Assembly (NCBI GenBank): GCA_964556975.1 | Contig: CAZKYQ010000002.1 | Span: 1 to 58,555 of the forward strand | Reading direction: 5' to 3' | Length of the DNA: 58,555 nt | Origin: an uncultured Ignavibacteria bacterium | GTDB taxonomy: Bacteria > Zixibacteria > MSB-5A5 > UBA10806 | Shown here: in pieces, positions 4,880 through 51,943 of the stretch | How positions within the stretch are numbered: position 1 is the first letter of the stretch | How the letters are laid out: every line of letters begins with the position of its first letter | The notes under the pieces: generated by a model | What the model saw: only the letters and a program-made list of their open reading frames with translations | Database searches by the model: none | What the model was told of the DNA's origin: nothing | Translations under genes and position numbers: made by a program

Positions 4880-4887
4880 CATTATGG

Positions 4888-7760: not shown

Positions 7761-9005
7761 TTGGATAAAATGGCAAAAAAAAAGAACGAACTGGAAGAGC
7801 TTGAAAAGCTCGCGGAATCTCTTACGGGCATGGGTGCCTTAACCCAATTAGTGCGCAATTCATATTCCCAATTAGAGTCTAAAATCGATGATGAAAACAC
7901 AAGGCTGGCACGAGTTAATGGCCTACTGCGCGAATCGCTTAACGAAAGAAACCGTCTCGCGAATTATCTAAACAGCATCCTTGAAAGCATTGACTCCGGA
8001 GCCATAGTAACCGGTAAAAACGGACGTATTAATATTTTTAATACTGCGGCTGAGAAATTTACCGGCATTTCTGCGGAATCGGCATTAGGAAAAAACTATT
8101 CTGATATAATGAAAAACTCAGCGTCGCCGGAGGCTGAGTTGATTATCAGGGGCGAATTGTCAAGCGCTTCTGGCGAAAAAACGCTCAACCCCCGGAAAGG
8201 AATTGATATTCCGGTGGCTTATTCTTTATCAAAACTCCGCAGGTTCGGCGAAGATGAAATGGAAGGAATGGTGGAAATTATTTACAATCTTTCCGAAACT
8301 AAGAAGCTCGAAAAGGAATTGAAGCATGTGTCGACCCTCGCCGCTTTGGGCGAAATGGCGGCTACGGTGGCGCATGAAATTAGAAATCCGCTGATGGGAA
8401 TTTCCGGGTATACGTCTCTTCTGGCCAGAGACCTGGAGGACGATAAGAAAAATCTCGATACTGTCTCGAAAATTTCAAAAGGAGTGAGGGCGCTCAACGC
8501 AATTGTAGGTAATCTTCTTGATTTTACAAAACCTATAAATCCCAACAAAATGGGAATAAACCCGATCTCTGTCATTGAGGAGACAATTGCCGAGTTTGAA
8601 GTGGATTCAGAATCGAAAAATCATACTTTTGAGATAGAATACAAGACAAGAAATCTTCATGCGGAACTTGACCCGGACCTTTTCAGGCAGATTGTTTACA
8701 ATCTTGCCAAAAACGCGGTTCAGACAAACCCGAATGGAGGGCGCGTAAAATTAATATTGAAAAAGCCGCCCCACGCCCATCTCACGCTTAATGTTGAGGA
8801 TGACGGTCCGGGGATTCCCGATGATATTAAGGAAAATATCTTCACCCCATTCTTCACTACAAAAACCAATGGAATCGGGCTGGGGCTTGCCACCGTTAAA
8901 AAATTAATAGAGCTTCAAGGCGGCAGTATTACAGCGGAGAACAAACCGGGTGGCGGCGCGGTTTTCACAGCCGATTTTCCCGGCGAAAAAGGAGACATCT
9001 TATGA
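7761..9005 (+). CDS. soluble PAS-domain sensor histidine kinase (FlgS/FleS-like)
   Basis: 414 aa with no TM segment. H-box [10 protein letters not shown]-box [10 protein letters not shown]1 DDGPGI, G2 GIGLGL. An alternative ATG start lies at 7770. Confidence 0.85.
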
Positions 9006-18288: not shown

Positions 18289-18753
18289 TTGAAGAAATTC
18301 CAATTCAGGCTTGAAAAGGTCCTTAGATATAAACGCCAGATTGAGGACCGCAAAAAACAGACGCTTTCCGAGCGCAATGCGGAATTAAATATCCAAAAAA
18401 ACTGTTTGCTTGAGTTACATGAACAAAAAGGCTTATATCAAAATAAATATTCATCACTATTTAAGGGGAAAATAAATGTTTACGGCTTGGTTTTCTCCGC
18501 GCGATTTCTTGACAAGCTGAATAAGAATATCCTTCATCAAAGTGATCTGGTAAAACACTCCGAGGAAAAATTGGAAAAAGCAAAGCTTGAACTCCGGGAA
18601 GCCATGCGCGACAGAAAAAAATATGAACGCATTAAAGAGAAAAGAAAGCTTGATCACGAATATGAAATGGGACGCGAAGAACAGAAGGAATTCGACGAAT
18701 TTGGGAGCAGAAAAAATCGGGTAAAATTAGCTATGGGCAATTGCCCGAAATAG
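18289..18753 (+). CDS. fliJ: flagellar export chaperone/stalk protein FliJ
   Basis: 154 aa, coiled-coil. N-terminus MKKFQFRLEKVLRYKR (TTG start). Canonical position after fliI. Confidence 0.85.
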   Translation: MKKFQFRLEKVLRYKRQIEDRKKQTLSERNAELNIQKNCLLELHEQKGLYQNKYSSLFKGKINVYGLVFSARFLDKLNKNILHQSDLVKHSEEKLEKAKLELREAMRDRKKYERIKEKRKLDHEYEMGREEQKEFDEFGSRKNRVKLAMGNCPK

Positions 18754-21196: not shown

Positions 21197-21287
21197 GTTC
21201 TTTTCTCTTTTCTTTTCAATTATCGGCATTAACAAAAATAAATCATTGAGTTCTATTGTGCAGAAAAAAGCATTTTAGCCTTCCCAA

Positions 21288-24200
21288 TTAACGTTTTTCA
21301 AGCTGAGCAGGTTTCTCTTTCGTTCTGTTCTCAATAGCAATCAAAACGCCCGGCGGACAATCCTGGCACGGAACGGGCGCAGCCCCTCCTTTAAAATAGG
21401 ATACGCCGTAGGTTACATCAAGTCCGTTGAAGCTGCAGCTATTATTGACATCGCCGGAAACATACCACGTATTGCCCGGCGTGCATTCGCATTCAAATAG
21501 CGGCGAAGCGCCCCCCTTAAAATATGCGACGCTGTATGTGATATCGAGACCATTGTAACTGTCGCTTCCGTTTACATCACCCGGTAAATAGACGCAAGCG
21601 CCTCCGGCTTCCATAATTTCCAGCGTAACCGGAACAACAACAAGCGGATCGGCCGGGTCGTTAGAGGCAAGATTGATTTGTCCTGTATATGTATCCGGCG
21701 TCAATGTAACCGCGTTAAGAGCCACCTGTGCTGTCAAACTATCTCCCGGAGGGATAGCATCCGCTGACGGATTAATAAACAACCAAACATTTAATAAAAC
21801 GGGGCTGGCATCCTTGTCAGAATTAGAAAGAATTGATGGTTGATTATTTTTTGCGCCATTAAGTGGCCATTGATCATCACCCAGCTTGCCAAGAATAGTG
21901 TTTTCTATCGCTTCCAGATGAAGATCCAGTATCGCGCTGCCCTGATTTCTAATTGTCAAATCAACAACTATCTGATTTCCTTCGGTAAGAGTTTCTGATA
22001 TGGAATCGCTGGCAACATCAATATCGGCCGCCAGCACGTTTAGCGTAACTGGCAAGTCAATAGTAGGATTAACGGGATCATTAGTTGCCGTAATAATCGA
22101 GTCAATATAAGCGCCCGCCAGAAGTCCTGAAGCGTTAATTGTTGCTTCTATGAGCAAACTATCGCCGGGAACAATATCAAAAGGTCCTGTGGGAATACTC
22201 AGCCATGATGCGGCTTCAGAGAATGCAACGGTCAAAATCGCAGTACCTGTATTTTTAACTTCAATCGTATCGACCTTTGAGCCGCCGCTTTCAAGGGTTT
22301 CGGTTATACTGGACGGCGTTTGGAGTATCTCCGCAGTCCCTCCCGTTCCGACATTTAATGTTACCGCAATATCGATTTGTGGTGTGCTGGGATCATTGGA
22401 ATCGAGATCAATATTGCCTGTATAATTTCCTTCGGGAAGATCGGTAGCGTCAAAAGTAATTGTAGCTGATGTTGAATCGTTCGGCGGAATAATACCGGAA
22501 TTTGGTGTTGCCGATAACCAGCTTCCGCTTTTTATTCGAATGCTCAGGTTGCTATGCATATAATCGGCATTGTAAACAATCCCAAGACCGTCCGATGCGT
22601 TCGAGTTTTCGATTCCTATTGTTGAAAGATTTAACTGATCAGTTCCGGGATCCATCGTTGCGTAATTTAATTCAATATCTCCATCTGGGTAAAGTATAGC
22701 CTGAAAATTCAGGTTGCCGCCGTAGCTCCAATTGGGAATTCCATCATAGCTGACTATAAACCTGTTATTAGCTGAATCCTGATAATACCTGATTGTGCCG
22801 CCAACCGCGGGGTTTAAATCATCCCACCAGGCAGAGATGAAATTATCCGGCGTGTTCGCTCCCGGAATAGGATCGTTGGAATAATCAGTTGAACCGGCGC
22901 CAAATGTCAACATGCCGTTGGAGCAAATATAAAGTTGTGTATAATTATTATCGTAAAATGGAAAACTGAAACCTATATTGATTGGACTGCTGTAATCATC
23001 ATCGTTAAGATTCACGGAAGTGCCGCTGCCTGAAATATCAACCCATGTCAACGGAGGACCGCTTGGCTCATCGGAATCGATCCATTCATGTCCAAATATG
23101 TCCGGCCCGCCCTGTCCCGTTATTACCGGTGCGTAAATCGGTTCCATTTCCAAATCCTGTTTGGATATTTCTTCCTTATAATACTTGATCGGTTTTCGCT
23201 CGCCGAAAGAAATGGTTACTGGTATTTTCGTCCCATTATCAAGCAAAAGATTATTGGTAGTTGTGCCCAAAGAGAAAACCAATGGGCCGTTGCCGATGTT
23301 GCCTATATCAAGATCACGAGTTTCTATGTTTCCCGGCGCTGTGTTTACGCTAAAGAATTGTGGAGAGTAAGAAATATCCGGAGGTTCCGGAGGTGTTGAG
23401 CCTATTACGACTACGTCATCAATATACCAGCCGGCATCCGTAACCGAAACGTCACTGCCGAATCGCCATTTAAACCGTACGGTTTCGCCATAGTACGAGG
23501 AAATATCAAATACCGCGAGGGCCCAATCCGATGATCCGGTGTAGCCAGGTTCGTTGTCAAGTCCGGTAACGGAATTATCCGGGTAATTGCCCACAGGAGT
23601 AAGTAGAGTCCATGACGAGCCGCCGTTTGTGCTGATTGAAACATTGCCGCCATCCCAGCCGCTTTCAATAGCATACCACTGGTAAAATTCCAGGCGGGCT
23701 ATGGGACTTGATATTACATAATCAATGCTATAAAGAGGGTCGTCAACACCATTATTATAATCATTATCCAAATCGGTTCCCCAGAGCCTGATACCCGACC
23801 AGGCGTTAGAAGGCCCTTGAGTTGCGGTTCCCCATTCCCATTCGCCGGAACCGTTGAATCCCCCATTTGAAGCCTCAAAAGATTCAGCGGGCTGCAAGGA
23901 AAAATCTAATTCATTTGTTTGCCCATATTGTATAAAGATACTATCCGATCCCTGGCTGTATCCTATTGCCTTTGCTTGCACAAGATACGATGATCCGGAA
24001 GGAACAGCGGGAAATTGATAAAATCCCTGAGCGTCTGTTGTTTCCGGAAGAATTGGAGTATTAAGAATTGTTATCTCCGCATTACCTATCGAATCGCCTG
24101 AAAGACTGGTTACGGTTCCCTGCAAGGCCGCCGAAGGGGCAGGGGAGAGTTGGAAATCTTGAAAAACGGTATCGTCTTGAGAGATTGTGATAAGTTGTTC

Positions 24201-25832
24201 TTGAGGCAGGTATCCAAAATAAGATGCCCTGATTGTGCGCGCTAATGAATCGGCGGGTGCTGACATGAAATAATATCCGGACGAATTTGCTTGCATAGAA
24301 CGGCTTTCACCTACAAGCTCGATTGTTGCGGGAAGAGGATTAGAATTTCCGGCATCCGTAATATTTCCTTCAACAAAGCCAAATCCGGTACTCGCCAAAA
24401 TAACGGCATCCAAAAGATTAATATTTCCATGCCCGTAATCGTTGTCCTCGCCAGCAGAACCAAGGTCTGTCGCCGTTTGCATTAAAATATCTTTTATCGT
24501 TTCGACATCAAGATTAGGGTTGACCTGTCTTAATATTGCCACCGATCCCGTAACATGGGGCGAGGCCATCGATGTTCCGCTCATAGTCGTATAGCCGCCG
24601 CCCGGAATTGACGAACGCACGCTTACGCCCGGGGCTACAACCTCCGGTTTTATAACAGTTTCGCCATTTGGCCCGCAATTGGAAGGCCCCCGCGATGAGA
24701 AGCTTGCTATTGGCAAAGATGGGTTAGCGCCGTCAACAGCCCCAACCGCAAAACAATTATAGGGCGTAGTACCGCGATCTGCCGGACGCCTTAGTCCCGA
24801 TGTACCTTCGTTTCCTGCAGAAAATACTACGACTGAACCCGCAAGTTCGACATTATCTATGACCGTCCAAAATGTTTGATCGCAAGGAGGATAGCCATGG
24901 CTTGTAGTTACGCCCCAGGAATTGCCGATGGCGTCGGGGTTATCTTGAGTATTTGGATTGCCGTCCGGATCAACAGCCCATTGAAAAGCAAGTATCGCGT
25001 CCGCGACTGTGCGTGGAATTCCTCCTCCTCTGTCGATTGCCGCGGCGGCTATCCATTGCGCTTCAATTGCGACGCCGATAGTATCGCCACCGGCGGAACG
25101 GCCGCAAATTGTTCCCATGGTATGAGTTCCGTGGGACCCGCCATCTTGAGGAAATATCCAATGCGTATCGTAAGGATCGTACCAGCTTTCGTCAACATCG
25201 CCGTCCCCGTCAACATCGCCCCTGAATCTTGAAGCGAGGGCCGGATGATTGCCGTCAACTCCGGTATCAATATTCATAACGACTCTTCCGGCTCCTGTCC
25301 AGCCTAACGCCCAAACTGCGGGAGCGTTGATCCGATCCAGTCCGATCTCCCTGCTTGCAATTAGGTTCCCCTCGTTTCCTTTTTTTACAGGCTCAATATT
25401 TTCGATCTCATAGTTATAAAAAAGTTCGGCTATATCTTCCCGACTTGCGGCGGCCAGAATTCCTTGTGTATTGGCTTCTATACTGAACATATTAGCGATC
25501 CAGAACATTTCATACTTTACTATTATGCCTTGATTCAAGAGGTTGTCTAAGTAATCGATAATTTCTGGTTGCGTGCGTGTCGCTGTTTTCTGTAGCTCAA
25601 GCACAACCCTCCTATTTCTTTCTGCCAGTGTTGCATTATTTGCCTTTAGTTCCGTATCTAATTTGAGCAAATCAGCTTGCTCTCTAATATAGGCTATAGC
25701 ATGAACAGTCTCATTTTCCGATAAGACATCAAGACGTGATTGCAAAAACGGGGCAATCGTCGCGGCAAATCCATTTGATATCGCCAAACAGCACATTAGA
25801 ATTGTAATTAATAATAATTTTGTCTTACTCAT
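21288..25832 (-). CDS. secreted subtilisin-like S8 serine protease, multidomain, with C-terminal dockerin-like double repeat
   Basis: Catalytic triad contexts DTGVDGNHPAL, HGTHTMG and GTSMASPHVTG. I9-like propeptide. Signal peptide MSKTKLLLITILMCCLAISNGFA. The ORF is open to 25892. C-terminus 2x GDVNGSxS(Y/F)NGLD(I/V)TY.V.YFKGG. Confidence 0.9.
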   Translation of the reverse strand: MSKTKLLLITILMCCLAISNGFAATIAPFLQSRLDVLSENETVHAIAYIREQADLLKLDTELKANNATLAERNRRVVLELQKTATRTQPEIIDYLDNLLNQGIIVKYEMFWIANMFSIEANTQGILAAASREDIAELFYNYEIENIEPVKKGNEGNLIASREIGLDRINAPAVWALGWTGAGRVVMNIDTGVDGNHPALASRFRGDVDGDGDVDESWYDPYDTHWIFPQDGGSHGTHTMGTICGRSAGGDTIGVAIEAQWIAAAAIDRGGGIPRTVADAILAFQWAVDPDGNPNTQDNPDAIGNSWGVTTSHGYPPCDQTFWTVIDNVELAGSVVVFSAGNEGTSGLRRPADRGTTPYNCFAVGAVDGANPSLPIASFSSRGPSNCGPNGETVIKPEVVAPGVSVRSSIPGGGYTTMSGTSMASPHVTGSVAILRQVNPNLDVETIKDILMQTATDLGSAGEDNDYGHGNINLLDAVILASTGFGFVEGNITDAGNSNPLPATIELVGESRSMQANSSGYYFMSAPADSLARTIRASYFGYLPQEQLITISQDDTVFQDFQLSPAPSAALQGTVTSLSGDSIGNAEITILNTPILPETTDAQGFYQFPAVPSGSSYLVQAKAIGYSQGSDSIFIQYGQTNELDFSLQPAESFEASNGGFNGSGEWEWGTATQGPSNAWSGIRLWGTDLDNDYNNGVDDPLYSIDYVISSPIARLEFYQWYAIESGWDGGNVSISTNGGSSWTLLTPVGNYPDNSVTGLDNEPGYTGSSDWALAVFDISSYYGETVRFKWRFGSDVSVTDAGWYIDDVVVIGSTPPEPPDISYSPQFFSVNTAPGNIETRDLDIGNIGNGPLVFSLGTTTNNLLLDNGTKIPVTISFGERKPIKYYKEEISKQDLEMEPIYAPVITGQGGPDIFGHEWIDSDEPSGPPLTWVDISGSGTSVNLNDDDYSSPINIGFSFPFYDNNYTQLYICSNGMLTFGAGSTDYSNDPIPGANTPDNFISAWWDDLNPAVGGTIRYYQDSANNRFIVSYDGIPNWSYGGNLNFQAILYPDGDIELNYATMDPGTDQLNLSTIGIENSNASDGLGIVYNADYMHSNLSIRIKSGSWLSATPNSGIIPPNDSTSATITFDATDLPEGNYTGNIDLDSNDPSTPQIDIAVTLNVGTGGTAEILQTPSSITETLESGGSKVDTIEVKNTGTAILTVAFSEAASWLSIPTGPFDIVPGDSLLIEATINASGLLAGAYIDSIITATNDPVNPTIDLPVTLNVLAADIDVASDSISETLTEGNQIVVDLTIRNQGSAILDLHLEAIENTILGKLGDDQWPLNGAKNNQPSILSNSDKDASPVLLNVWLFINPSADAIPPGDSLTAQVALNAVTLTPDTYTGQINLASNDPADPLVVVPVTLEIMEAGGACVYLPGDVNGSDSYNGLDITYSVAYFKGGASPLFECECTPGNTWYVSGDVNNSCSFNGLDVTYGVSYFKGGAAPVPCQDCPPGVLIAIENRTKEKPAQLEKR

Positions 25833-25964
25833 CACATTTCCCTTTCCCGAATGAAAGATATTTTGATTTAAATCGAAATTTCCGAATGACACAATTCGTA
25901 TAGAGTTCTTAAATTCTTAATCTGGCAACCTTATGAATTCCCCGGAATTATCTTTGCTCCTTTC

Positions 25965-32888: not shown

Positions 32889-33878
32889 ATGGCACAGGTA
32901 TTATCACAAGACGAAATTGATGCTCTGCTCAGTAACGTCGAAGTAGAAGAGGAATCGGCTGCTCCGGTTGCGGCCGCGGTTCAATCAAGACATGTTGAAA
33001 GCGGGCGCAAAGCTGTCCTATACGATTTTAAACATCCGAATAGAGTATCGAAGGATCAGCTAAGGTCGTTGGAATCATTACACGATAATTTTGCCAATCA
33101 ATTCGGTTCCGCCCTTTCCGGCTTCACCCGCTCAGTGGTGGACGTGGACCTGATCTCTGTAGATCAGATTACCTATTCTGAGTTCGTTATGTCTCTCGCG
33201 ACCCCGTCATGTACTTATGTTTTTGCCCTTAGCCCCATAGAGGGCGCGGGAATCCTCGATTTCAATCCGTCGGTAGCGTTTTCATTTGTTGACAGGATGT
33301 TCGGGGGCAAGGGTAAGGCCCTGACGACGGAGCGAGAATTGACGGGAATTGAAAGATCGATAATGTCGAAAATTATTGCCAGAGCATTTCAAGGATTGGG
33401 AAAATCATGGGAACATGTAGATAAGCTTGAATTCAAACAATCCGCCTTTGAGAGCAACCCGCAATTCATTCAAATTGTGCCGCCCGGCGAAACAGTGATT
33501 GTAGTCTCGCTTCAAATTAAGATGCTTTCGTCTTCAGGATTAATAACTTTATGCTATCCATATCTCACATTGGAACCAATAATGGAAAAGCTTTCCGCTC
33601 AACATTGGATCGAGGCAAAAAAAAGAAGCGATGAAGGCAACCGATTTGAATCTAATACTAAAAGCATCTCTGAGGTCAAGACGAAAATCACGGCTTTTCT
33701 GGGAAACACAACGCTTACCCTTAAAGACTTTATTGGCTTAAAACCGGGCGATGTAGTCCGTTTGGACGAGAGCGAGAGCGATGATAGCGTAATATTCATC
33801 GGAGATAGCAAGAAATTTGTGGGCAGGCCGGGCATCATGGGAAGAAATAAAGCTGTGAAAATAACTAATATAATCTAA
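32889..33878 (+). CDS. fliM: flagellar motor switch protein FliM
   Basis: 329 aa. N-terminal CheY-P docking motif LSQDEIDALL. GGKG-type motif MFGGKGK. Confidence 0.95.
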   Translation: MAQVLSQDEIDALLSNVEVEEESAAPVAAAVQSRHVESGRKAVLYDFKHPNRVSKDQLRSLESLHDNFANQFGSALSGFTRSVVDVDLISVDQITYSEFVMSLATPSCTYVFALSPIEGAGILDFNPSVAFSFVDRMFGGKGKALTTERELTGIERSIMSKIIARAFQGLGKSWEHVDKLEFKQSAFESNPQFIQIVPPGETVIVVSLQIKMLSSSGLITLCYPYLTLEPIMEKLSAQHWIEAKKRSDEGNRFESNTKSISEVKTKITAFLGNTTLTLKDFIGLKPGDVVRLDESESDDSVIFIGDSKKFVGRPGIMGRNKAVKITNII

Positions 33879-33889: not shown

Positions 33890-34660
33890 ATGCCGGATGA
33901 AGAACTGAATGAAAGCAATCCTGAAGAGAACGGCCCGGCGCCGGATAATCCTGCTGATGAAAATAGCAGCGAGGAAAAAACGCCCGATCCGGAATCTACA
34001 GATGATTCAACCGCCGACAATATAAAAGAGCCTTCAATGGAAAGCCCAGCATCTGATTCGCCCGAAGATGTAAAGACTTCTGAGGCGAGCGAACCATCAA
34101 GCGAAGATACTAAAACTGAAGCCTCTAAAGATGATTCGGGCGATCTGTCCCAGGATGAAATAGACGCCGCGTTTAATTCGGTAAACGGCGCTCCAAGCGA
34201 AGAGAAAAGTTCGTCTGGAGATGCGGCGATTGAATTGTCTCAAGATGAACTTGAGACCGCCTTGAATGGAGAGGCATCGGCGCCCGAATCGCGTCCGGAA
34301 CCGGACAATGCCGGCCTGCAGCAATCAGCGGACGATAATATCAATATTGTAAAGCCGAAGAAGTTTGAAGACTTTAGCGGCATTGAGAAGAGCGGGGAAG
34401 AACAAAATATAGATATACTTCTGGATGTAACCCTTCCCGTCGCAATCGAACTTGGAAGAACTTCGATGCCAATCCAAGATATACTTAATCTCGGCCCCGG
34501 CTCTGTTGTAGAATTAAACCGCCTTGCCGGAGAACCGGTTGATCTTTTGGTCAATGATAAGCTGATTGCCAGGGGCGAAGTTGTAGTTGTGGACGAGAAT
34601 TTCGGCGTAAGAATAACCAGCATGGTTTCCCCAGAAGAACGTTTGAAAGGCCTTGTATAG
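33890..34660 (+). CDS. fliN: flagellar motor switch protein FliN with about 170-aa acidic N-terminal extension
   Basis: C-terminal SpoA/FliN domain (LLDVTLPVAIELGRTSMPIQDILNLGPGSVVELNRLAGEPVDLLVNDKLIARGEVVVVDENFGVRI). The N-terminus is D/E/S/P-rich. Confidence 0.92.
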   Translation: MPDEELNESNPEENGPAPDNPADENSSEEKTPDPESTDDSTADNIKEPSMESPASDSPEDVKTSEASEPSSEDTKTEASKDDSGDLSQDEIDAAFNSVNGAPSEEKSSSGDAAIELSQDELETALNGEASAPESRPEPDNAGLQQSADDNINIVKPKKFEDFSGIEKSGEEQNIDILLDVTLPVAIELGRTSMPIQDILNLGPGSVVELNRLAGEPVDLLVNDKLIARGEVVVVDENFGVRITSMVSPEERLKGLV

Positions 34661-43633: not shown

Positions 43634-44026
43634 ATGTTTGTAGAAGTTGCGGTTCTGACAATTTCCGTACTAAATATCGTAGTTGTCTCAACGCTTTTAA
43701 TTGTCTTGATGAGATATCTTAAAGCAAATAAAAACAGCTATGCCGCGTCGGACGACCGGGCCGAACAATATTATGGCGATTTGCTGGAGCGGATTAAAAG
43801 GATAGAAAAAGAAAATCCTTCAAAGGTATTGGCTAAATTTGAAAGCCGGGATCTGAATATTATCAACGCTGGAACCAACCGCATTAAATCAGCTGTCAAA
43901 AGACTTCGCGAGGGGAGCCTCCCGGATGAAGTCCGTCGGGAGTTTGGTTACTCACACTCTGAGATCGGGATCATCATGGCCTCTGCAGGATTAAAATCAG
44001 AATTGAATGACAATAAGTCCCTTTAG
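43634..44026 (+). CDS. hypothetical single-pass membrane protein (positional analogue of SwrB after the sigma28 gene)
   Basis: 130 aa. N-terminal TM segment (VAVLTISVLNIVVVSTLLIVLM). C-terminal HTH-like segment AVKRLREGSLPDEVRREFGYSHSEIGIIM. GGAGG RBS. Confidence 0.6.
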   Translation: MFVEVAVLTISVLNIVVVSTLLIVLMRYLKANKNSYAASDDRAEQYYGDLLERIKRIEKENPSKVLAKFESRDLNIINAGTNRIKSAVKRLREGSLPDEVRREFGYSHSEIGIIMASAGLKSELNDNKSL

Positions 44027-44048
44027 GAAATTGGGGTATTGCCGATAA
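44022..44048 (+). promoter_or_regulatory. sigma28-type promoter (perfect -10 GCCGATAA, weak -35 TTTA at N15)
   Basis: GCCGATAA at 44041-44048 in the 58-nt gap upstream of the DUF2225-like/PilZ operon. A GAAGAGG RBS and ATG 44085 follow. Confidence 0.55.
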
Positions 44049-44084: not shown

Positions 44085-45272
44085 ATGACAGATAAACAAA
44101 TACCCTACTTTATAAGCAAAGTTGATTGCCCGATTTGCGGTTTTGCCAATTCGTTCGAAATTATCAAACAAGGCTCTTACATGGAATCAGGCCGGGATAC
44201 CGACTTTGCTCCCATTGGAAGAGTTTGGAAAAATCCGGTATTTCAGGGAATTAACCCTCTTTTGTATTTCACAGGCTCTTGTTTAAATTGCCATTATACA
44301 AGAGAAGTAAATTCTCCCTTCAAAGAATGGAAAAGTGACATCAATTTCAAAACATATCGCCTTCCCTCGCAAAAGAAAAAACATCTAAATGAAATCGCTG
44401 ATGATGACTGCGTTATCAAGAGACTTGGAAAGTCCATAGATCAGAAGAAATACCCTGTTGAGTCGTCTATAATAAAATTGTTATTAGCCATCTATGATGA
44501 AAAACTAATGGACAAACCAACCTCTCTTGACATTGCCAGATTTTATATTCGAATAGCCTGGATATATCGCGAGATCAATGGCGGAGGAAAAGACGAAAGC
44601 GCATCTCCGGCGAATATGATGTTAAGTAAAATTCAAATTGAAATTGATAGGCTCAATAATGATGTGCAGGGTTTCTCCGGTCATATAACGCCCTTGAGGA
44701 ACATGATTGTTGATGATTTTGATCCGGTTATGGCAAAGGGTAATGATCGAGCTGGCATGTCGTCAATGATAAAGACCGCTGTGGATAGTGTTTATAAAGT
44801 CTGGAACTCCCTTAAAAAAGATGTTGGCAATCTTCAGACTGAGTTTAATAAAGTCAAACAGGAAATAGTTCTTCTAAATCCCGATGCTGAAGAGTCGAGC
44901 GGATTTTACGAATATCCGACCTTTGTTGACTTTCTATATGGCGTAAAGGAAAAATGGCAGGATGTTCCGGTAATAGAGTCGGAAGCTCTTAATTACGCGC
45001 TTCAATACTATCTCAAGTCATATCAGAATAGCAGAGAAATAAAACCCGGCCTTCAACAGATCCAGGCATCTTACATGATCGGTGAGCTGTCCAGGCGGAT
45101 CGGCAACAGCAAACAGGCATTGGAGTATTTTACAATTACATCGAAGCAAGCGCATGAAATGATGAACAGCAATAGAAGCAATAAAACAATATTCTCTAAT
45201 GCGCAGAAAATTCTTCAAATGACTCTTGAACAAGCCCGTTTATTAAAAAAGCCTGAACAAGTAAAAGCATGA
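44085..45272 (+). CDS. DUF2225-like zinc-ribbon protein with helical (TPR-like) C-terminal half
   Basis: 395 aa. CPICGF...DTDF...NPLLYFTGSCLNCHYT matches the split zinc-ribbon pattern I associate with DUF2225. Confidence 0.6.
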   Translation: MTDKQIPYFISKVDCPICGFANSFEIIKQGSYMESGRDTDFAPIGRVWKNPVFQGINPLLYFTGSCLNCHYTREVNSPFKEWKSDINFKTYRLPSQKKKHLNEIADDDCVIKRLGKSIDQKKYPVESSIIKLLLAIYDEKLMDKPTSLDIARFYIRIAWIYREINGGGKDESASPANMMLSKIQIEIDRLNNDVQGFSGHITPLRNMIVDDFDPVMAKGNDRAGMSSMIKTAVDSVYKVWNSLKKDVGNLQTEFNKVKQEIVLLNPDAEESSGFYEYPTFVDFLYGVKEKWQDVPVIESEALNYALQYYLKSYQNSREIKPGLQQIQASYMIGELSRRIGNSKQALEYFTITSKQAHEMMNSNRSNKTIFSNAQKILQMTLEQARLLKKPEQVKA

Positions 45273-46012
45273 AAAAGAGAATAAGCACAAAATATGACAA
45301 TCTTTCCCTCTGGGATAAGCTAACTGTGTTTCTTGTTAAAGAGGGGGCCCGCTCCGAATTCATCAGCCGCATAGAAAACATAAAACGAAATTCCTATAGT
45401 CTTGAAATGCCGGTGCGAAAAAGCGGAAAGTCTAATTTACAAAAAGGAGATGTTGTGGAAATTCGGTATAATAAGCATGATGCCGCATATACGTTTAAAG
45501 CAAGTATAAAAGACTTGTTTGTAGACAGTTCAGGCTCGATTGAGATTAACCGAGAAGGCGCTACAAAAAGAGACCAAAAAAGAAAATATGTTCGGCTTGA
45601 TATTTCAGAAGATATTAATTTTAGAATCATCGAATCTCCTGAAGATAAGTATGCTGGAATGAGCCCGGAATTTCATGGGGCGCTGTTAAATATTTCCGCA
45701 GGGGGTTTTCTTTACGAAACAGATAAGGAATTGCAAACAGACTCCCTTTTGATAATTAATTTCAGTCTTAAAGGACATCATAAGCTTGAAAATATCCTGG
45801 CTGTTGTTAAACGAGTTGAGTGTGCTGAACAGGGGAAATTTCTTATAGGGGCAGAATTTGTTACAAAAGAAAACCGGTCCGATTATGGGCTGGAAAAACT
45901 TAGCGACTATCTGCCTCATGGCTCAGGTACATTTGATGAAAACCTCCAAAGGCTTATCGTGCAGTACATTTATCAGCAGCAAGTAAGAATTCGAAAAGAG
46001 GGCCGTTTGTAA
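45269..46012 (+). CDS. PilZ-domain c-di-GMP receptor, YcgR-like (putative flagellar brake)
   Basis: 247 aa. RxxxR motif (RKYVR) and (D/N)xSxxG motif (NISAGG), with an N-terminal YcgR-N-like beta region. 4-nt overlap with the upstream gene. Confidence 0.75.
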   Translation: MKKRISTKYDNLSLWDKLTVFLVKEGARSEFISRIENIKRNSYSLEMPVRKSGKSNLQKGDVVEIRYNKHDAAYTFKASIKDLFVDSSGSIEINREGATKRDQKRKYVRLDISEDINFRIIESPEDKYAGMSPEFHGALLNISAGGFLYETDKELQTDSLLIINFSLKGHHKLENILAVVKRVECAEQGKFLIGAEFVTKENRSDYGLEKLSDYLPHGSGTFDENLQRLIVQYIYQQQVRIRKEGRL

Positions 46013-46567
46013 ATGCGCGCAATATTATTGTCAATTTTGAAAACTTTGATTTCCGCGCTGTTGTTAATCAATTTCGCCTCAGCATCTCGAATACCTTCCA
46101 CCAATCTTGCAATTATGATACAAACCGAAAATGCGGCCTTCCCAGAGCAAAATATATTGCTTATTTCCGCCCTTAAAAAAGAGATGAAACTAAAGGGGTT
46201 CATGGGGCGAACCAGAATACTTGATCAAGAGAAGCCGTTGCCGGTCGCAGGCGAAACTGTTATAAAAATCACAATCACGGAAAATTGCTGGAAGACAAAA
46301 AAACTTTTATCAATACCTTATTTTCTTAACCGATATGCCCGCGAATTTACATTGGAAACGTTTGTTGAGATCCCGGAAGGCCGCAAAGGAATGTCAATAA
46401 AGAGAATGAAAGCAATAAGTTCAACGCCTGCCAGCGCACAGTATAATTACAACGATAAATTTGATCCGGGCCTGTTTCCAATTCAGGCGGAGCGGCTTGA
46501 AATGGAGGAAAAAGCAAGACGTTTACTGGCAAAGAAACTAGCGGGACATCTATTTAACCAGCTATGA
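46013..46567 (+). CDS. hypothetical secreted protein
   Basis: 184 aa. Signal-peptide-like N-terminus (LLSILKTLISALLLINFASAS). Starts directly after the PilZ gene stop. No family recognised. Confidence 0.5.
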   Translation: MRAILLSILKTLISALLLINFASASRIPSTNLAIMIQTENAAFPEQNILLISALKKEMKLKGFMGRTRILDQEKPLPVAGETVIKITITENCWKTKKLLSIPYFLNRYAREFTLETFVEIPEGRKGMSIKRMKAISSTPASAQYNYNDKFDPGLFPIQAERLEMEEKARRLLAKKLAGHLFNQL

Positions 46568-46693: not shown

Positions 46694-47551
46694 ATGAAAA
46701 TGGAGGGAACAGTGCCTCGTAGATTAGACAAGAGTGATATTAACAGCCTTAGCAATGAATTAAAGACGCTTTATGAAATTTCAAAAGTCGTTCAGGAAGC
46801 TGCGGTCTCCAGGGACTCATTTGAGAGCATTTTAAAATCAGTTGAAGAAATAATAGATTTTCGCTCTGCGTCCCTGTTTATGTTCTCGAAGAAAACTAAA
46901 TCATTAGATGAAATTTGCAGCATTGGACGAAAAGTGGACCTTATAAATTTTGTGGAATTTGATATGGGGTCGGGTATTTCGGCATGGGTGGCCCAGAAAA
47001 AGAGGCCGATACTCCTCAACAATCTAAGAAAATCCAAAGGCGGGAACCATACCAAATCATTTCTTTCTGTTCCGATTGTTTTTAATAATGAAATTATCGG
47101 GGTGATTAATCTCGCCCACGATGAACCGGGATCGTTTACAAAAGAGGACGTGAATATACTGGGAATTATCTCTACGATTTTTGCGCTCTTGTTTGAAAGA
47201 GTCAGTTATCAGGAATTAGAAAACGAAACCCGGCTCGCGATAGATGAATTAAACCAACAAATAAGATCGACCAGAAATGAAATTACCAAGATTGAAAATG
47301 TTCAAACGGGTGGAACAGCCTCCGAATCGCTGTGTAAGCAAATAGGGAATCCGTTGGCCATAATTGCCGGCAACGCTCAATTTCTTATAATGATGATGAA
47401 AAATTCAAACAATTCAATTATCAGAAGATTGAAAGCGATAGATAAGGAAGCCGCAAACATTATGCTAATTACAAATCAATATTTATCATCCGGCCCTTAT
47501 GGTGAAAGTAAATTTACTGTTAGCCATAATGATAGCTTCAAGGGCAATTAG
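46694..47551 (+). CDS. GAF-domain protein with His-less DHp-like helix and no catalytic domain (pseudo-histidine kinase)
   Basis: 285 aa. GAF pattern (FLSVPIVFNNEIIGVINLAHDEPGSFTKED). The H-box position reads CKQIGNPL rather than xHEIRNPL. The protein ends about 65 aa later. Confidence 0.7.
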   Translation: MKMEGTVPRRLDKSDINSLSNELKTLYEISKVVQEAAVSRDSFESILKSVEEIIDFRSASLFMFSKKTKSLDEICSIGRKVDLINFVEFDMGSGISAWVAQKKRPILLNNLRKSKGGNHTKSFLSVPIVFNNEIIGVINLAHDEPGSFTKEDVNILGIISTIFALLFERVSYQELENETRLAIDELNQQIRSTRNEITKIENVQTGGTASESLCKQIGNPLAIIAGNAQFLIMMMKNSNNSIIRRLKAIDKEAANIMLITNQYLSSGPYGESKFTVSHNDSFKGN

Positions 47552-47574
47552 TCCGCGAAAGCGTTGACGACAGA

Positions 47575-49299
47575 ATGACCGCTGCTACTGAAAAGAAAAC
47601 GCAGGACCTCGAATTTGAAAGGCCCGCGGTTTATTTCACTCTCGATAGAAATCACTCTATCAGCAATCTGATATGGCAAGGGCCGATAAATTGCGGGGTC
47701 GATGATTATAGCCGCAGGCCTGATTTCGGCAATATTTTTAGTATTAATGATCCAAAAGTTAAGAATGCCGTTGGAAACGCGTTTGACGGCAAGCCATCGC
47801 AAGCCCGTTTTCAGCGCGCAAACGGCAAAAGAGATTATTACTACGATCTTTATTGCTTTCCCAATTTCGGGCATGACGGCTCAAATGTTGATTGTTTCCT
47901 TGTTGACAGGAGCAAGGATGAGGAGATGTCGAGAGTTCTTCGCCTGAAGATTGATGGGCTTGATATAATCAATCAGGCCGTCAGGGCGTTTGCCGAAACA
48001 AATAATCTCTCCGAAATCCTGGAGATAATATTGCTTGCGGTTACATCGGGATCAGGACTCGGATTTAACAGAGGGTTTATTCTATTAGCCGATGAGACAA
48101 ATTCTTTCCTTCATGGTTGCCTTGCGAAAGGGCCGTCATCCCCTGAAGAGGCAGGGATTATTTGGCAAAGTCTTTCTGAAAAGCCGCTTTCGCTTGCCGA
48201 AGTTTTAAGGCTTTATAAAAATGAAGAGAATCAAACCGATAGCTACGTAAACAAGCTTGTTGAATCCCTGAAAATCACCCTTAAAGATGAAACAACATTT
48301 ATAACAAGGTCTTTCGAGGAAAGACAAGCGATTGTTATCGGCTCCGATACTGTTCTTAATGATATAGAAAAAGATTTCATAGGCAAATTCGGAGCAAAGA
48401 ACTTTGCTGTGGCGCCTCTTATCTCTCGCGAATCCCGACTCGGTGTGATCATGGCGGACAATTATATTACTGATAAGCCTATCACTTCGGCAGATCTTAA
48501 GCTCTTGGAGATTTTTGCCAGATATGCCTCTGATGCCATCGAGAACACTCACTTGCATGGAAGTTTACAGCGAAAAATTACGAAATTAAAAGAAGCCAAT
48601 GAAAAAATCATAAGAACCAGAGAAACCCTTGTTAAAGCGGAAAAATTATCCAGCGTCTCCAAAATGTCGCTTGAAGTCGCGCACGAAATACGCAATCCGC
48701 TAACTATAATCGGCGGCCACGCAAATGCCCGATTAAGAAATATCGATGTTAACGATCAATCTTGCAAAGTCCTGAAAATAATCTCAAAGCAGGCAAGCCG
48801 CATTGAACAAACGCTTGATCGTTTTACCAGTGTCATTTCACTTAGTGAAAAAACGGAAAACGCTTACGATTTTTGTGATCTCATTCTTGAGACATTAAGA
48901 ACGCTTTCTTCGGTTGAATCTCAAGAAATACCCATGATCACGATTGACGCGAACATTGAAAACGGCAAAATATTTATTGACCAGGGCCTGTTCTACAAAG
49001 CTATGATGGTTATTTTCAAAACGGCTTCAAAAATTGCGGGGGGGCTATCAAAAGTCCGAATAGAAATAATGAAACATCGTGAATCCGCCATGGTTCTAAT
49101 AAACAGCTGCGATAAAAGCGAAAATTTCTCAGAGGAATTTTTCTATTTTATGCGCGCTGGCCGCGGAGAATCAGAATCTCAGGAAATGACAGTCGCCTTG
49201 GAAATACTTAGACATTATAAAGGCGATTTAGGTATCGGCTCGCCTGAAAAAATGCAGGGCGGCCTATCAATAGAATTTCCGTTAAGCAGGGAGGAATAA
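47575..49299 (+). CDS. GAF-domain histidine-kinase-like protein with intact H-box but degenerate ATP-binding domain
   Basis: 574 aa. GAF (GVIMADNYITDKPITSADLKLLEIFARYASDAIEN). H-box VAHEIRNPL. The CA-like region has no recognisable N, G1 or G2 boxes (VIFKTASKI; NSCDKSENF; EMTVALEIL). Confidence 0.75.
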   Translation: MTAATEKKTQDLEFERPAVYFTLDRNHSISNLIWQGPINCGVDDYSRRPDFGNIFSINDPKVKNAVGNAFDGKPSQARFQRANGKRDYYYDLYCFPNFGHDGSNVDCFLVDRSKDEEMSRVLRLKIDGLDIINQAVRAFAETNNLSEILEIILLAVTSGSGLGFNRGFILLADETNSFLHGCLAKGPSSPEEAGIIWQSLSEKPLSLAEVLRLYKNEENQTDSYVNKLVESLKITLKDETTFITRSFEERQAIVIGSDTVLNDIEKDFIGKFGAKNFAVAPLISRESRLGVIMADNYITDKPITSADLKLLEIFARYASDAIENTHLHGSLQRKITKLKEANEKIIRTRETLVKAEKLSSVSKMSLEVAHEIRNPLTIIGGHANARLRNIDVNDQSCKVLKIISKQASRIEQTLDRFTSVISLSEKTENAYDFCDLILETLRTLSSVESQEIPMITIDANIENGKIFIDQGLFYKAMMVIFKTASKIAGGLSKVRIEIMKHRESAMVLINSCDKSENFSEEFFYFMRAGRGESESQEMTVALEILRHYKGDLGIGSPEKMQGGLSIEFPLSREE

Positions 49300-49655
49300 T
49301 GAAGAACATTTTAATCGTTGATGATGAAGAAGACATTCGCAGCCTTTATGAAAGCGAATTCGAAGTAGAGGGATATCAAACATCCTCTGTTGAATCAGGC
49401 AGTGAGGCCATAAAATTCATTGATGAAAACTCAGACCTGGACCTGATTATTCTTGATATCAAAATGGAAGATGTGGACGGTCTTGAAGTGCTCGAAAATA
49501 TCAGGGCGAAAACGGGGAAGATGCCGGTGATTTTGAATTCTGCCTACAATACTTACAAGAATAATTTCACTTCATGGCTTGCGGACGCTTATCTTGTAAA
49601 ATCATCCGATCTCTCCGAGCTAAAAAACAAAGTCAGGGAGCTATTGTCGGTTTGA
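49299..49655 (+). CDS. stand-alone response regulator receiver (CheY-like)
   Basis: 118 aa. ILIVDDEED, IILDIKMEDVDG, LNSAY, YLVKS. 1-nt overlap with the upstream gene. Confidence 0.88.
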   Translation: MKNILIVDDEEDIRSLYESEFEVEGYQTSSVESGSEAIKFIDENSDLDLIILDIKMEDVDGLEVLENIRAKTGKMPVILNSAYNTYKNNFTSWLADAYLVKSSDLSELKNKVRELLSV

Positions 49656-50020
49656 GGGCTGATAAGAATGTAAACAACGAGGGCCTGCTGAATTATATTG
49701 AAACGGTATCCAGCGAAATTCAGCTTCTTGCTCTTAATATTGCTGTTGCCGCGGCAAAATTGGCTCACAATCAAAAAATCGGGGTAGAAGTAAACCAAAA
49801 CCTTTCAAATCTTGTCAATCAAGCAACGCAAGCCGTAAAGCAGATGAACCTGGTAATAGATGCCGCCAAAACGGATAAAAAACCGACTAATTTCTTCGCT
49901 GATATCAAGGCCGAACCGGTGGATCAAGAGCTAATTGAAGATATTGAAATCGCTATGGGCCTTATTGTAAAAAATTCTGAGAAAATTGTGCGCCTATTAG
50001 CTGAAGTAAAAACAAAGTAA
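49652..50020 (+). CDS. small protein resembling only the hairpin-tip signalling region of methyl-accepting chemotaxis proteins
   Basis: EIQLLALNIAVAAAKL resembles the MCP tip [16 protein letters not shown]. TTG at 49652 overlaps the upstream stop, with an AGGGAG RBS. The ORF is open from 49574 inside the REC gene. Confidence 0.55.
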   Translation: MRADKNVNNEGLLNYIETVSSEIQLLALNIAVAAAKLAHNQKIGVEVNQNLSNLVNQATQAVKQMNLVIDAAKTDKKPTNFFADIKAEPVDQELIEDIEIAMGLIVKNSEKIVRLLAEVKTK

Positions 50021-50027
50021 TAATTGC

Positions 50028-50402
50028 ATGGCTTCCAACTCAGTATTATTAATTGAAGATTCTCCTGAAGTTAGAGATGTTGTTTCCGAGATTTTAGCCT
50101 GTTATGGCTATGATGTTACTTTAGCTGACAACGGTTATGAGGCATGGGAAAAAGTGAATGTCAGACCTTTTGACCTCGTAATAGCAGATTTGGGTCTTCC
50201 TGATATGGATGGAGAAGAGTTTTTTAGGAAAATGAGGCGGAATTCAATAAAAACCCCCGTTCTTTTGACAACTGGTGTTGATATGAAAAAAAGCCGCATA
50301 AAATGGGATGATTTCTCAAATTACAGATTACTCCTGAAGCCATTTAATATTAGCGAGATTGAAACGGCAATTTCTGAGCTTTTAGAAAAAAAAATCGCAT
50401 AA
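50028..50402 (+). CDS. stand-alone response regulator receiver (CheY-like)
   Basis: 124 aa. VLLIEDSPE, LVIADLGLPDMDG, LLTTG, LLKPF. Confidence 0.88.
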   Translation: MASNSVLLIEDSPEVRDVVSEILACYGYDVTLADNGYEAWEKVNVRPFDLVIADLGLPDMDGEEFFRKMRRNSIKTPVLLTTGVDMKKSRIKWDDFSNYRLLLKPFNISEIETAISELLEKKIA

Positions 50403-50498
50403 AAAGTAATATCCGAATTTTTTATTTCGATAATATCTGTATGCACTATGGCTCTCATAGTCATAATTTGAACTTATGAAAATAAAAAGGAGATAATC

Positions 50499-50927
50499 AT
50501 GAAAGAATATGTAAAAATTCTTATAGTTGATGATGAACCGATGATGCGAAATCTATTGCTGAAAATATTGGAGTCAGAGGGTTATAAAATTACTTTAGCG
50601 GCTTCCGCTCTTGAAGCCTTGGACAGGCTCGATGAAGACAAGTTCGATTTGATGTTGTCTGACGTTAAAATGCCGGGAATGAACGGTTTTGAGTTGCTGG
50701 AAGAAGTTAAAAAGAAATGGAACGATATGGCCGTCATAGTCATGACAGGCTATGGGGATGCTTTCACCATAAAAGAAGCCCTCCTTAAAGGGGCATATGA
50801 ATATTTGTCCAAGCCGTTCAAGAGCCATGAAGTTTCGCTGATAGTAGAAAGAGCTTACTGGAGATTGCTTTCTGTACGAAATTCTGTAGAGGGTATCAAG
50901 GAAACTATTGCGGCAACACAAAACTAA
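50499..50927 (+). CDS. stand-alone response regulator receiver (CheY-like)
   Basis: 142 aa. ILIVDDEP, LMLSDVKMPGMNG, VIVMTGYG, YLSKPF. AAGGAG RBS. Confidence 0.9.
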   Translation: MKEYVKILIVDDEPMMRNLLLKILESEGYKITLAASALEALDRLDEDKFDLMLSDVKMPGMNGFELLEEVKKKWNDMAVIVMTGYGDAFTIKEALLKGAYEYLSKPFKSHEVSLIVERAYWRLLSVRNSVEGIKETIAATQN

Positions 50928-51157: not shown

Positions 51158-51173
51158 AGGCATGCCAATTGCT
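51158..51173 (+). promoter_or_regulatory. sigma54-type promoter aGGCAT-N5-TTGCT upstream of flgF
   Basis: GG at 51159-51160 and GC at 51171-51172, 10 nt between. It lies 39 nt upstream of ATG 51212, with a GGAGG RBS. A second box, TGGCAC-N5-TGGC, lies at 51114-51128. Confidence 0.65.
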
Positions 51174-51211: not shown

Positions 51212-51943
51212 ATGATTAAAGGAATTTACACTTCGGCCTCCGGGATGCTTCCGCGGATACTTAAACAGGAGACCTTCGCCAATAATATGGCAAATGTAAA
51301 TACTCCCGGATATAAAAAAGATGGAGTATTCCTGCAGGTCTTAAGCGAAGCCGCTCAAAAAGAAATCATAACAGATCATCCATGGGAAGTTCCTATGGTT
51401 GATGATATATATGTAGATTTTTCGCAAGGGGACCTCGAAAAAACCGGAAGCGACACAAACATCGCTATCGACGGGGACGGCTTTTTTGCCATTCAAACAA
51501 GCTCGGGGCTAATGTATAGCAGGTCGGGCGATTTTTCCCTTTCACCCCAGGGCCAATTGATAGATCGAAATGGCAATTCAGTTATGACCGATTCGGGGCC
51601 GCTAACAATACTCGCCGATTCATTTATGGTAGGCGACGACGGAACGGTTACAGTTGACGGGTTTGCGGTTGGCCGCATTAAAGTGGTTGATTTTGAGAAA
51701 CCCTATGAACTCAATAAGGCCGGCAACTCGTACCTTGTCCCGAAAGACGCGACCGTGGTAGAAAAACCGGCAAATGATTTTCAGGTTCGGCAGGGATATC
51801 TGGAAAAATCCAATGTCAATGTTATTGAAGTTATGGTTGATATGCTTTCATCTTTCAGAGCGTATGAAGCGGGGCAGAAAGCGATACAATCGCAGGACGA
51901 GACCCTTGATAAAGCAATTAGCGATCTCGGAAGAACAGCTTAA
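51212..51943 (+). CDS. flgF: flagellar rod protein FlgF (FlgF/FlgG family)
   Basis: 243 aa. IYTSASGMLPRILKQETFANNMANVNTPGYKK. C-terminus EVMVDMLSSFRAYEAGQKAI. Confidence 0.85.
   Translation: MIKGIYTSASGMLPRILKQETFANNMANVNTPGYKKDGVFLQVLSEAAQKEIITDHPWEVPMVDDIYVDFSQGDLEKTGSDTNIAIDGDGFFAIQTSSGLMYSRSGDFSLSPQGQLIDRNGNSVMTDSGPLTILADSFMVGDDGTVTVDGFAVGRIKVVDFEKPYELNKAGNSYLVPKDATVVEKPANDFQVRQGYLEKSNVNVIEVMVDMLSSFRAYEAGQKAIQSQDETLDKAISDLGRTA

Follow-up and report, generated by a model that had tools for sequence, protein, structure and literature searches.

A six-gene cassette between two flagellar operons

The stretch of DNA analyzed here (the window; 58,555 nucleotides (nt), contig CAZKYQ010000002.1) comes from an uncultured bacterium that is labeled Ignavibacteria and assigned by GTDB to the Zixibacteria, and its 58.5 kb are a flagellar supercluster almost throughout. 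Between two flagellar operons of this window lies a cassette of six co-directional genes on the + strand, g1 to g6 (46694-50927), which encodes His-Asp signaling proteins arranged around g2, a histidine kinase homolog predicted to be kinase-dead, and which includes a mini-protein related to the signaling tip of methyl-accepting chemotaxis proteins (MCPs). All six genes had been listed in an initial annotation made from the sequence alone, and all are present as described there.

The first gene, g1 (46694..47551; 285 amino acids (aa)), encodes a GAF and a DHp domain only, with a Lys at the position of the phospho-His and no CA domain. It is followed by g2 (47575..49299; 574 aa), with PAS-like, GAF, DHp (H370) and pseudo-CA domains, and by g3 (49299..49655; 118 aa), a TrrA-type single-domain receiver whose start codon shares 1 nt with the stop codon of g2. 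The mini-chemoreceptor gene g4 (49652..50020; 122 aa), which has the MCP signaling tip only, begins at a TTG that overlaps the g3 stop. Two further receivers complete the cassette: g5 (50028..50402; 124 aa), a single-domain receiver, and g6 (50499..50927; 142 aa), an NtrC/Spo0F-like single-domain receiver with a conserved C-terminal helix, 'ERAYWR', which lies behind a 96-nt spacer and has its own ribosome-binding site. Pfam detected no output domain, whether DNA-binding or enzymatic, in the six proteins, and no CheA, CheW or MCP among the 50 open reading frames (ORFs) of the window that were scanned, including every large ORF up to flgF, as the initial annotation had supposed for CheA, CheW and output domains. 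No convincing transmembrane segment was found in any of the six proteins. All are predicted to be cytoplasmic, with the PAS-like and GAF domains as their sensors.

The kinase homolog g2 and its paralog g1

In Pfam, g2 matches GAF and HisKA (33.5 bits, with a cut-off of 26.9) and gives no match to HATPase_c (PF02518). Proteins of approximately 570 aa that resemble g2 form approximately 100 homolog clusters, all of which are likewise without HATPase_c; an exact look-up of the g2 sequence of the window returned no database record. An AlphaFold2 model built with 24 homologs (mean predicted local distance difference test score of 75) comprises a PAS-like domain (residues 18-111), a GAF domain (145-295), a signaling/DHp helix pair (305-424) and an alpha/beta domain (428-569). 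When the core of this model is searched with Foldseek, it matches the solved kinase cores of ZraS, CckA, ThkA and RetS, and g2 is thus modeled as retaining a CA-like fold despite the loss of its ATP boxes.

The alignment of this region with the nearest HATPase-positive homologs is gapless, without indels. Compared with active relatives, both N-box Asn residues, the G1 motif DxGxG and the G2 motif GxGLG are all substituted, and the replacements differ from ortholog to ortholog, which indicates relaxed constraint on the ATP pocket. Of 28 orthologs, only one, from a metagenomic locus designated L090, has kept the boxes intact; the other 27 have lost them. Part of the F-box region is preserved ('F..F'). 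Within the catalytic core, the CA-like domain shows the lowest conservation, with a mean pairwise identity of 35% versus 57% for the DHp domain, and carries a motif of its own, 'ALEIL.HYGG.IG', that is conserved in the g2 orthologs. The H-box 'VAHE[IVL]RNPLT' is found in 27 of 28 orthologs (L090 has Q at H+1), and H370, R373, N374, P375, L376 and T377, that is, the phospho-His and RNPLT, are invariant in all 28. The protein therefore has the DHp domain and H-box His of a HisKA-type kinase and lacks the ATP domain defined by the N, G1, F and G2 boxes. Judged from these residues, g2 is a kinase-dead protein that is not expected to bind ATP and that retains its phospho-acceptor His and the H-E-x-x-N motif. 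The initial description of an intact H-box without recognizable ATP boxes is thus borne out, with the CA-like fold as a refinement. Hidden Markov models and structure prediction, proposed at that time as a check for ATP-binding domains overlooked by eye, revealed no intact ATP-binding site.

The g1 protein matches GAF_2 (E=9e-15), and its HisKA match stays below threshold (12.5 bits, cut-off 26.9). It is collinear with residues 260-419 of g2 (BLASTP E=1e-8), K216 aligning with H370, and it ends after the DHp domain, without a CA domain. By its alignment, g1 appears to be a truncated paralog of the GAF-DHp part of g2, in agreement with its earlier description as a GAF protein with a His-less DHp: Lys216 occupies the place of the g2 phospho-His and nothing follows the DHp. 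Among 24 orthologs, the phospho-His position is H in 7, Q in 8, K in 3, D in 2, R in 2, E in 1 and A in 1. The His is thus absent from 17 of the 24, while the adjacent NPLAIIAGNAQFL is kept nearly invariant.

Three stand-alone receivers

The proteins g3, g5 and g6 consist of Response_reg only (E=6e-24, 5e-23 and 2e-32 in Pfam), as had been reported for the three receivers. In the window all three active sites are complete, with an acidic pair, a phospho-Asp, a Thr/Ser and a Lys. Across 40 orthologs of g3, the DD pair, D53, S81 and K100 are invariant, and the same is true of DD, D55, T83 and K105 in 25 orthologs of g6. In 31 orthologs of g5, the acidic pair, the phospho-Asp and the Lys are invariant and the Thr/Ser switch position varies among A, T and S. 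The g5 protein is also the least conserved of the three receivers (31-53% identity to its orthologs). Identity across the clades that carry them is 53-81% for g3 and 51-79% for g6, comparable with that of FliA and FlgF.

The best relatives of g6 in the PDB are the Spo0F and NtrC receivers, and neither PDB nor NCBIfam similarity singles out CheY for g3, g5 or g6. From its sequence, g3 is best classed as a TrrA-type receiver and not as a recognizable CheY. A Cle-type tail that binds cyclic di-GMP was also considered for g6. Cle-type proteins are defined by an Arg-rich C-terminal region with tandem [Y/F]xGP[D/E][R/K]R (PMC5677366), and the candidate was rejected: 'RAYWR' resembled RxxxR, and the published ARR motif is absent from the tail, ERAYWRLLSVRNS.

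A mini-protein related to the chemoreceptor tip

The most unusual component of the cassette, and the least expected one, is g4. Its true start is the TTG at 49652, which gives a protein of 122 aa, because an identical 122-aa protein is present in the database and the lengths of the homolog clusters agree; the ATG at 49574, a mechanically assigned ORF start, is wrong. The 107 clusters of g4 homologs are almost all 117-131 aa long, with few truncated exceptions. Taken alone, the g4 of the window gives a weak MCPsignal match (E=0.005; 17.1 bits versus a gathering score of 34.6). A profile of the g4 family matches the MCP tip region of Thermotoga 2CH7 (E=2.7e-8) and also Tm14 (3G6B), Tsr (1QU7) and 6S18, and some family members carry precomputed PF00015 matches. 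The original description of a mini-protein resembling only the MCP hairpin tip is confirmed in this way, with the start corrected.

The g4 protein aligns without gaps to the hairpin tip 'LLALN.A..AA', and in one clade it has a CheW neighbor. It differs from MCPs in most other respects. It is without methylation helices, long coiled coil, HAMP domain, input module or ligand-binding part, and transmembrane segment; it is also far shorter, as Tm14 (3G6B/3G67), a short soluble receptor, has 213 aa and typical MCPs have at least 500. The U-turn 'GRGF' is replaced by 'NQKIG', and in the AlphaFold2 model, which has helices at 8-39, 45-74 and 92-121 and a disordered segment at 75-91, the third helix folds back. 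Finally, g4 co-occurs with a HisKA-type protein and not with CheA. When 1.8 billion representative proteins were searched exhaustively with the family profile, the matches were only a few dozen clusters of mini-proteins of approximately 115-155 aa, plus some fragments, and after these ordinary full-length MCPs. The named family members come from Zixibacteria, except for one partial sequence from a 'Bacteroidetes' metagenome-assembled genome.

The cassette in related loci

Approximately 40 related loci were gathered from assemblies of genomes and metagenomes. Wherever a locus extends far enough, the genes again stand in the order g1-g2-g3-g4-g5-g6, down to 32% identity in g2, so that the synteny in relatives on which the initial annotation had made its proposal depend is found. 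The cassette is nearly always within a flagellar cluster, usually flanked by the same upstream genes and by flgF, and its homologs carry the name Candidatus Zixiibacteriota. Because gene order, identities and catalytic residues are all conserved, the cassette is under selection and is not debris. CheA was found in none of the loci. When a genome collection was scanned with the g2 profile, generic GAF/HisKA kinases dominated the matches, and only two loci, L004 and L005, were orthologous. The latter (CAZTNJ010000091.1) is labeled 'uncultured Ignavibacteria bacterium' and has a Zixibacteria-type cassette and neighbors, with a FliA 70% identical to that of the window; its label is probably a binning or labeling error, the other possibility being a cassette outside Zixibacteria.

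Variants among the relatives are informative. The deep relative L090, whose FliA is 65% identical to that of the window, has the order FliA, DUF2225, PilZ, g1, g2, a TrrA-like receiver, a mini-MCP of 132 aa and, immediately after it, flgN. Its cassette core (4781-8609) thus consists of g1-g4 only, without g5 or g6. The g2 of this locus has intact N, G1, F and G2 boxes ('NIFRNA', 'DTGFGIP', 'CGLGL'), and its g1 is longer (353 aa) and His-less. All kinase-dead loci with enough downstream sequence have extra receivers 3' of g4. The constant core is therefore g1-g4, and further receivers are found where g2 has lost ATP binding. A short contig, L123 (g3, g4, then flgN), may be a second locus of the L090 type. 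In every locus examined, including L090 with its active kinase, g4 accompanies g2 and g3.

In another clade, L087/L088, a kinase-dead g2 is combined with a His-containing g1, and a CheW gene directly follows the mini-MCP, before the next receiver (L087 12536-13321; L088 10001-10528). This is the only clade of the collection in which a search found CheW inside the cassette; no CheA is at the locus. The CheW of L087 has a Lys-rich N-terminal extension of 120 aa, and in this clade CheW is followed by two receivers and then FapA. An extra receiver, g0, stands before g1 in loci of several clades (for example L002, 8695-9123; L084, 8690-9112; L085, 8665-9105; also L111, L114, L122, L004, L106 and L118) and is absent from the window and L001. 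Its acidic pair is degenerate and its phospho-Asp position is D, G, E or A. Six of these loci (L002, L084, L085, L111, L114, L122) have FapA 3' of g6 as well. Such a FapA/DUF342 gene occurs in two clades (L002, 13481-14932; L084, 13457-14890; L085, 13441-14874; L087, 14291-15736) and is absent from the clade of the window. In a further sub-clade (L086, L097, L098, L104, L109, L113) the cassette is followed by flgN-csrA and not by flgF. DUF2225 and g6 were not detected in L086, whose flagellar cluster is thus rearranged or reduced.

The flagellar surroundings

By Pfam, the flagellar genes of the window are, in order, motAB, flgBC, fliE-J, fliK, flgD, flgE, fliL, fliM, fliN, fliOP and fliR; by synteny with L001 they continue with flhB, flhA, flhF, flhG and fliA and later with flgF-flgK. 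The cassette comes after flhA-flhF-flhG-fliA and the YcgR-like brake gene and before flgF. Upstream of it, on the + strand, are a DUF2225 gene (44085-45272; Pfam), the gene of a YcgR-like PilZ protein (45269-46012; Pfam) and a gene for a putative signal-peptide protein (46013-46567) with a hydrophobic N terminus and no family match, and these genes also precede the cassette in relatives. Downstream, also on the + strand, lies flgF (51212-51943); flgF and flgG were identified by synteny and by the Pfam annotation of L001.

The switch proteins, identified with the Pfam families FliM and FliMN_C, bear on the possible output of the cassette. FliM (32889-33878, +) has an N-terminal 'LSQDEIDALL'. 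FliN (33890-34660, +) is unusually long, at 256 aa, and carries two more motifs, 'LSQDEIDAAF' and 'LSQDELETAL', both in its acidic, low-complexity N-terminal half. The translations of FliM and FliN together thus hold three LSQDE[IL] motifs of the CheY-docking type, and binding of CheY-type receivers by an LSQDE-type motif is established for FliM.

Promoter assignments are pattern matches only. A sigma28-like site (44022-44048, +) lies upstream of DUF2225, and transcription of the cassette may run on from it. A sigma28 promoter belonging to g1 itself was considered in the 126-nt gap upstream, where a weak match with 16-nt spacing was seen by eye only; it was rejected because the pattern search did not return it and the region cannot be aligned between relatives. 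Before flgF is a sigma54-like -24/-12 site, AGGCATGCCAATTGCT (51158-51173, +). The sigma28-like sites at 10396, 44022 and 56018 are just upstream of motA, DUF2225 and flgN, and sigma54-like -24/-12 sites at 12062, 26187, 36302 and 51158 are at or just before flgB, an ORF at 26177, fliR and flgF. Together the patterns suggest a two-sigma hierarchy. Scans of the window for sigma70 promoters and terminators gave no excess of matches over shuffled sequence, and an Rfam search of the window gave no match.

At the head of the flagellar cluster (4888-10360), a partner-switching set stands directly upstream of a receiver, a kinase and a sigma54 activator, all identified by Pfam: a GAF-PP2C/SpoIIE phosphatase (4888-6213), an RsbW-like HATPase_c_2 kinase (6210-6647), a STAS protein (6664-6996), a stand-alone receiver (7049-7618), a PAS-HisKA-HATPase kinase (7761-9005) and an NtrC-type sigma54 activator (9002-10360). 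A sigma28-like site at 4853 is near the partner-switching set. The initial annotation had offered the FlgS-like kinase at 7761 as a possible source of power for the cassette; this suggestion gained no support, as nothing links the two and the kinase has an NtrC-type partner of its own next to it. Midway through the flagellar genes, fliJ and fliK are separated by two large secreted-protease genes on the - strand (18731-25892), one for an M6/InhA-like peptidase of 834 aa and the other for an S8 subtilase of 1534 aa with CarboxypepD_reg, MAM and Ig-like domains. S8 genes of a similar kind adjoin the flagellar cluster in L086 and L087. An ORF of 977 aa at 1744-4677 has no Pfam match at E<=0.001.

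Origin and comparison with known systems

The best solved relative of g2 is ThkA (3A0R_A; E=3.7e-8), and that of g3 is TrrA (3A0R_B; E=3e-27, the next match being at 2e-15). ThkA and TrrA of Thermotoga maritima are two chains of one crystal structure (PDB 3A0R). In g2 and g3, too, a kinase homolog is paired with an adjacent receiver in the size class of 116-120 aa, and g3 shares the TrrA signature 'SAY..YK...SW.AD.Y.VKS'. Pairs of a kinase and a TrrA-like receiver with intact ATP boxes are also found in loci of Gemmatimonadota, Acidobacteriota and Thermotogota, in non-flagellar surroundings. These relationships indicate that the g2/g3 core comes from an ordinary, widespread two-component pair. 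However, ThkA and the kinases of the pairs in other phyla have all of the N, G1, F and G2 boxes and g2 has none, g2 has gained a GAF domain relative to ThkA, and g2/g3 are embedded with g1, g4, g5 and g6 in a flagellar cluster. Two other HATPase-positive relatives, P0104 and P0120, were set aside as ordinary kinases in unrelated contexts.

In its architecture, g2 resembles ChpT of Caulobacter and Spo0B, which also combine a DHp domain carrying a phosphorylatable His with a CA-like alpha/beta domain unable to bind ATP. ChpT is a phosphotransferase with a kinase fold that shuttles phosphate between receivers (PMC3433190). No sequence relationship between g2 and ChpT or Spo0B could be detected, implying an independent origin of g2. 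ChpT lost its ATP lid by structural remodeling, whereas g2 keeps the length of its active relatives and has lost the ligand residues only; ChpT is also without sensor domains, unlike g2 with its PAS-like and GAF domains. A second precedent is the hub in which the single-domain receiver MrrA feeds phosphate to PhyK and LovK and additional receivers serve as phosphate sinks (PMC5964349); PhyP, whose CA domain is degenerate, is a phosphatase candidate (PMC5964349). Like the cassette, this hub joins phosphotransferases or phosphatases of the kinase fold with single-domain receivers. It belongs, however, to the alphaproteobacterial general stress response and the HWE/HisKA2 lineage, has a partner-switching sigma factor output, and is without a chemoreceptor-like component or a flagellar context. 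The g1 of the window, with its Lys, is comparable to DivL of Caulobacter, a kinase homolog in which the phospho-His is replaced and which still docks a receiver, but DivL keeps its CA domain and several PAS domains, whereas g1 is GAF plus DHp only and some of its orthologs have the His.

The cassette also shares single-domain receivers, a chemoreceptor-derived protein and docking-type motifs on FliM and FliN with the canonical MCP-CheW-CheA-CheY pathway, and its position, the slot after fliA, is the site of che genes in many polar flagellates. Unlike in that pathway, no CheA was found in the window or in the related loci, and CheW in one clade only; the set of CheA, CheW and MCP that makes up a Che pathway is found neither among the scanned ORFs of the window nor in the related loci. 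The initial annotation could match the combination to no described system, and this still holds for the literature searched, even though the parts have relatives in ThkA/TrrA, in relays of the ChpT and PhyK type and in MCP tips.

A proposed phosphotransfer hub and its alternatives

The reading that we favor, and put forward tentatively, is that the cassette is a cytoplasmic His-Asp phosphotransfer or phosphatase hub, fed from outside, that tunes the flagellar motor, and that it evolved from a self-powered pair of the ThkA/TrrA type now integrated in the Zixibacteria flagellar regulon. Because g2 has lost ATP binding and kept an invariant His with H-E-x-x-N, it would most likely be a phosphotransferase and/or phosphatase, controlled by ligands via its PAS-like and GAF domains, that moves phosphoryl groups among g3, g5 and g6 or strips these receivers of phosphate. 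Phosphate would be supplied by a donor external to the cassette: another kinase, CheA or acetyl phosphate. Since its DHp domain is conserved and its His is dispensable in most lineages, g1 would most likely be a non-catalytic modulator that docks receivers or forms heterodimers. The g4 protein, a remnant of a chemoreceptor tip, is firmly tied to the g1-g3 core and probably serves it as scaffold or regulator; where CheW is present, g4 may bind CheW as well. One or more phosphorylated receivers would then act on the flagellar motor or switch, a target suggested by the position of the cassette after fliA and the YcgR-type brake gene and before flgF, and by the docking-type motifs of FliM and FliN.

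This reading builds on what the sequences show: the domains of the six proteins, ATP boxes that are gone, His and Asp residues that are kept, homologous systems, a conserved gene order and a series of evolutionary stages among relatives. From these we infer which way phosphate flows, which partners g1 and g4 have, and that the motor is the target. A phosphorelay or phosphate-sink network had been proposed in the initial annotation, and the anatomy fits it (g2 His in 28/28, ATP boxes lost in 27/28, receiver phospho-Asp invariant), although the flow itself is something we infer. The accompanying proposal, that CheY-like receivers may act on the switch, is tentative: the three LSQDE[IL] motifs are there, but g3 is of the TrrA type rather than a recognizable CheY. 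Several points weigh against our reading. A single clear locus, L090, underlies the association of an active kinase with the lack of extra receivers. The TrrA-type relatives of g3 occur in non-flagellar contexts, so that homology does not imply the motor as a target. The conserved pseudo-CA motif could be the mark of a new function, and the role of g4 is assigned from co-occurrence, that is, guilt by association.

Co-occurrence with g2 and g3, extending to the four-gene core of L090 with its active kinase, also suggests a more specific role for g4, as a dedicated partner of a HisKA-type (class I) kinase or pseudokinase and a TrrA-type receiver in a CheA-independent control of the motor in Zixibacteria. 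We regard this as speculative.

The nearly invariant DHp helix of g1, with the His replaced in 17 of 24 orthologs, is what would be expected of a docking surface without chemistry, and the pseudo-CA domain of g2 keeps conserved motifs. Both features could belong to a reverse-signaling pseudokinase scaffold, for which DivL is an established precedent (PMC4211667). In such a scaffold, g1 and g2 would read the phosphorylation state of receivers on their DHp surfaces without transferring phosphate, and would pass it on allosterically to g4, to a CheW/CheA array elsewhere or to the motor. If no phosphoryl chemistry took place at this site, however, it would be difficult to account for a His and RNPLT that are invariant in all 28 g2 orthologs, and DivL itself is without the His, so that we consider the scaffold unlikely.

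A different target is conceivable for the same proteins. FapA is tied to polar flagellum formation in Vibrio, and a FapA/DUF342 gene is directly 3' of the cassette in two clades. The cassette also lies between the fliA-containing operon and the sigma54-type flgF operon, and TrrA-type receivers are not orthologs of CheY. It might therefore control flagellar gene expression, assembly, number or placement and not rotation, either at a checkpoint set between the sigma28 operon and the sigma54 operon or via FlhF, FlhG or FapA. Yet the six proteins lack output domains for DNA binding or enzymatic activity, a YcgR-like PilZ motor brake is among the neighbors of the cassette, and the switch proteins carry extra motifs of the CheY-docking type; control of this kind is, in our judgment, improbable.

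We think it very unlikely that g2 is still an active kinase that uses a non-canonical nucleotide pocket or another phosphodonor, which would make the cassette a self-powered two-component system with several receivers. The conservation of CA fold and length without indels relative to active relatives, together with the partly kept F-box, would fit such a kinase, but every known Mg-ATP ligand (the N-box Asn, the G1 Asp and glycines, the G2 glycines) is substituted. Last, the degenerate ATP boxes, the loss of the g1 His, the truncated MCP and the variable Asp of g0 in relatives might be taken for the decay of a functionless chemotaxis or two-component operon, a notion that is most improbable given the strong evidence of purifying selection: all frames are open, order and lengths are conserved across deep divergence in the related loci, g3 and g6 are well conserved, and the receiver catalytic residues and the g2 His are invariant.

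Implications

Flagellar steering in uncultured phyla is essentially a blank field. The founding Zixibacteria genome, RBG-1, was described as non-flagellated, and no description of this cassette, or of chemotaxis in Zixibacteria, was found in the literature searched. Phosphotransferases with a kinase fold, pseudokinases, receivers that act as phosphate sinks and short soluble MCPs are all known singly. What is new relative to that literature is their combination, its fixed place in the flagellar cluster and a family of MCPs reduced to the tip.

If the proposed hub is correct, the cassette would be an independent natural case of a sensor kinase turned into a kinase-dead hub for phosphotransfer or dephosphorylation. 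Living intermediates, such as the four-gene loci with an active kinase, the loci that contain CheW, and those with and without the g1 His, would make this evolutionary route directly testable. The g4 proteins would form a new family of minimal chemoreceptor-tip proteins and could show what a tip alone is able to do and whether it can regulate proteins besides CheA. The hub would also suggest that in these bacteria the motor is coupled to cytoplasmic PAS/GAF sensing rather than to transmembrane chemoreception. Should g4 in fact be a dedicated partner of the HisKA-type protein and its receiver, the cassette would represent an undescribed hybrid of chemosensory arrays and classical two-component systems.

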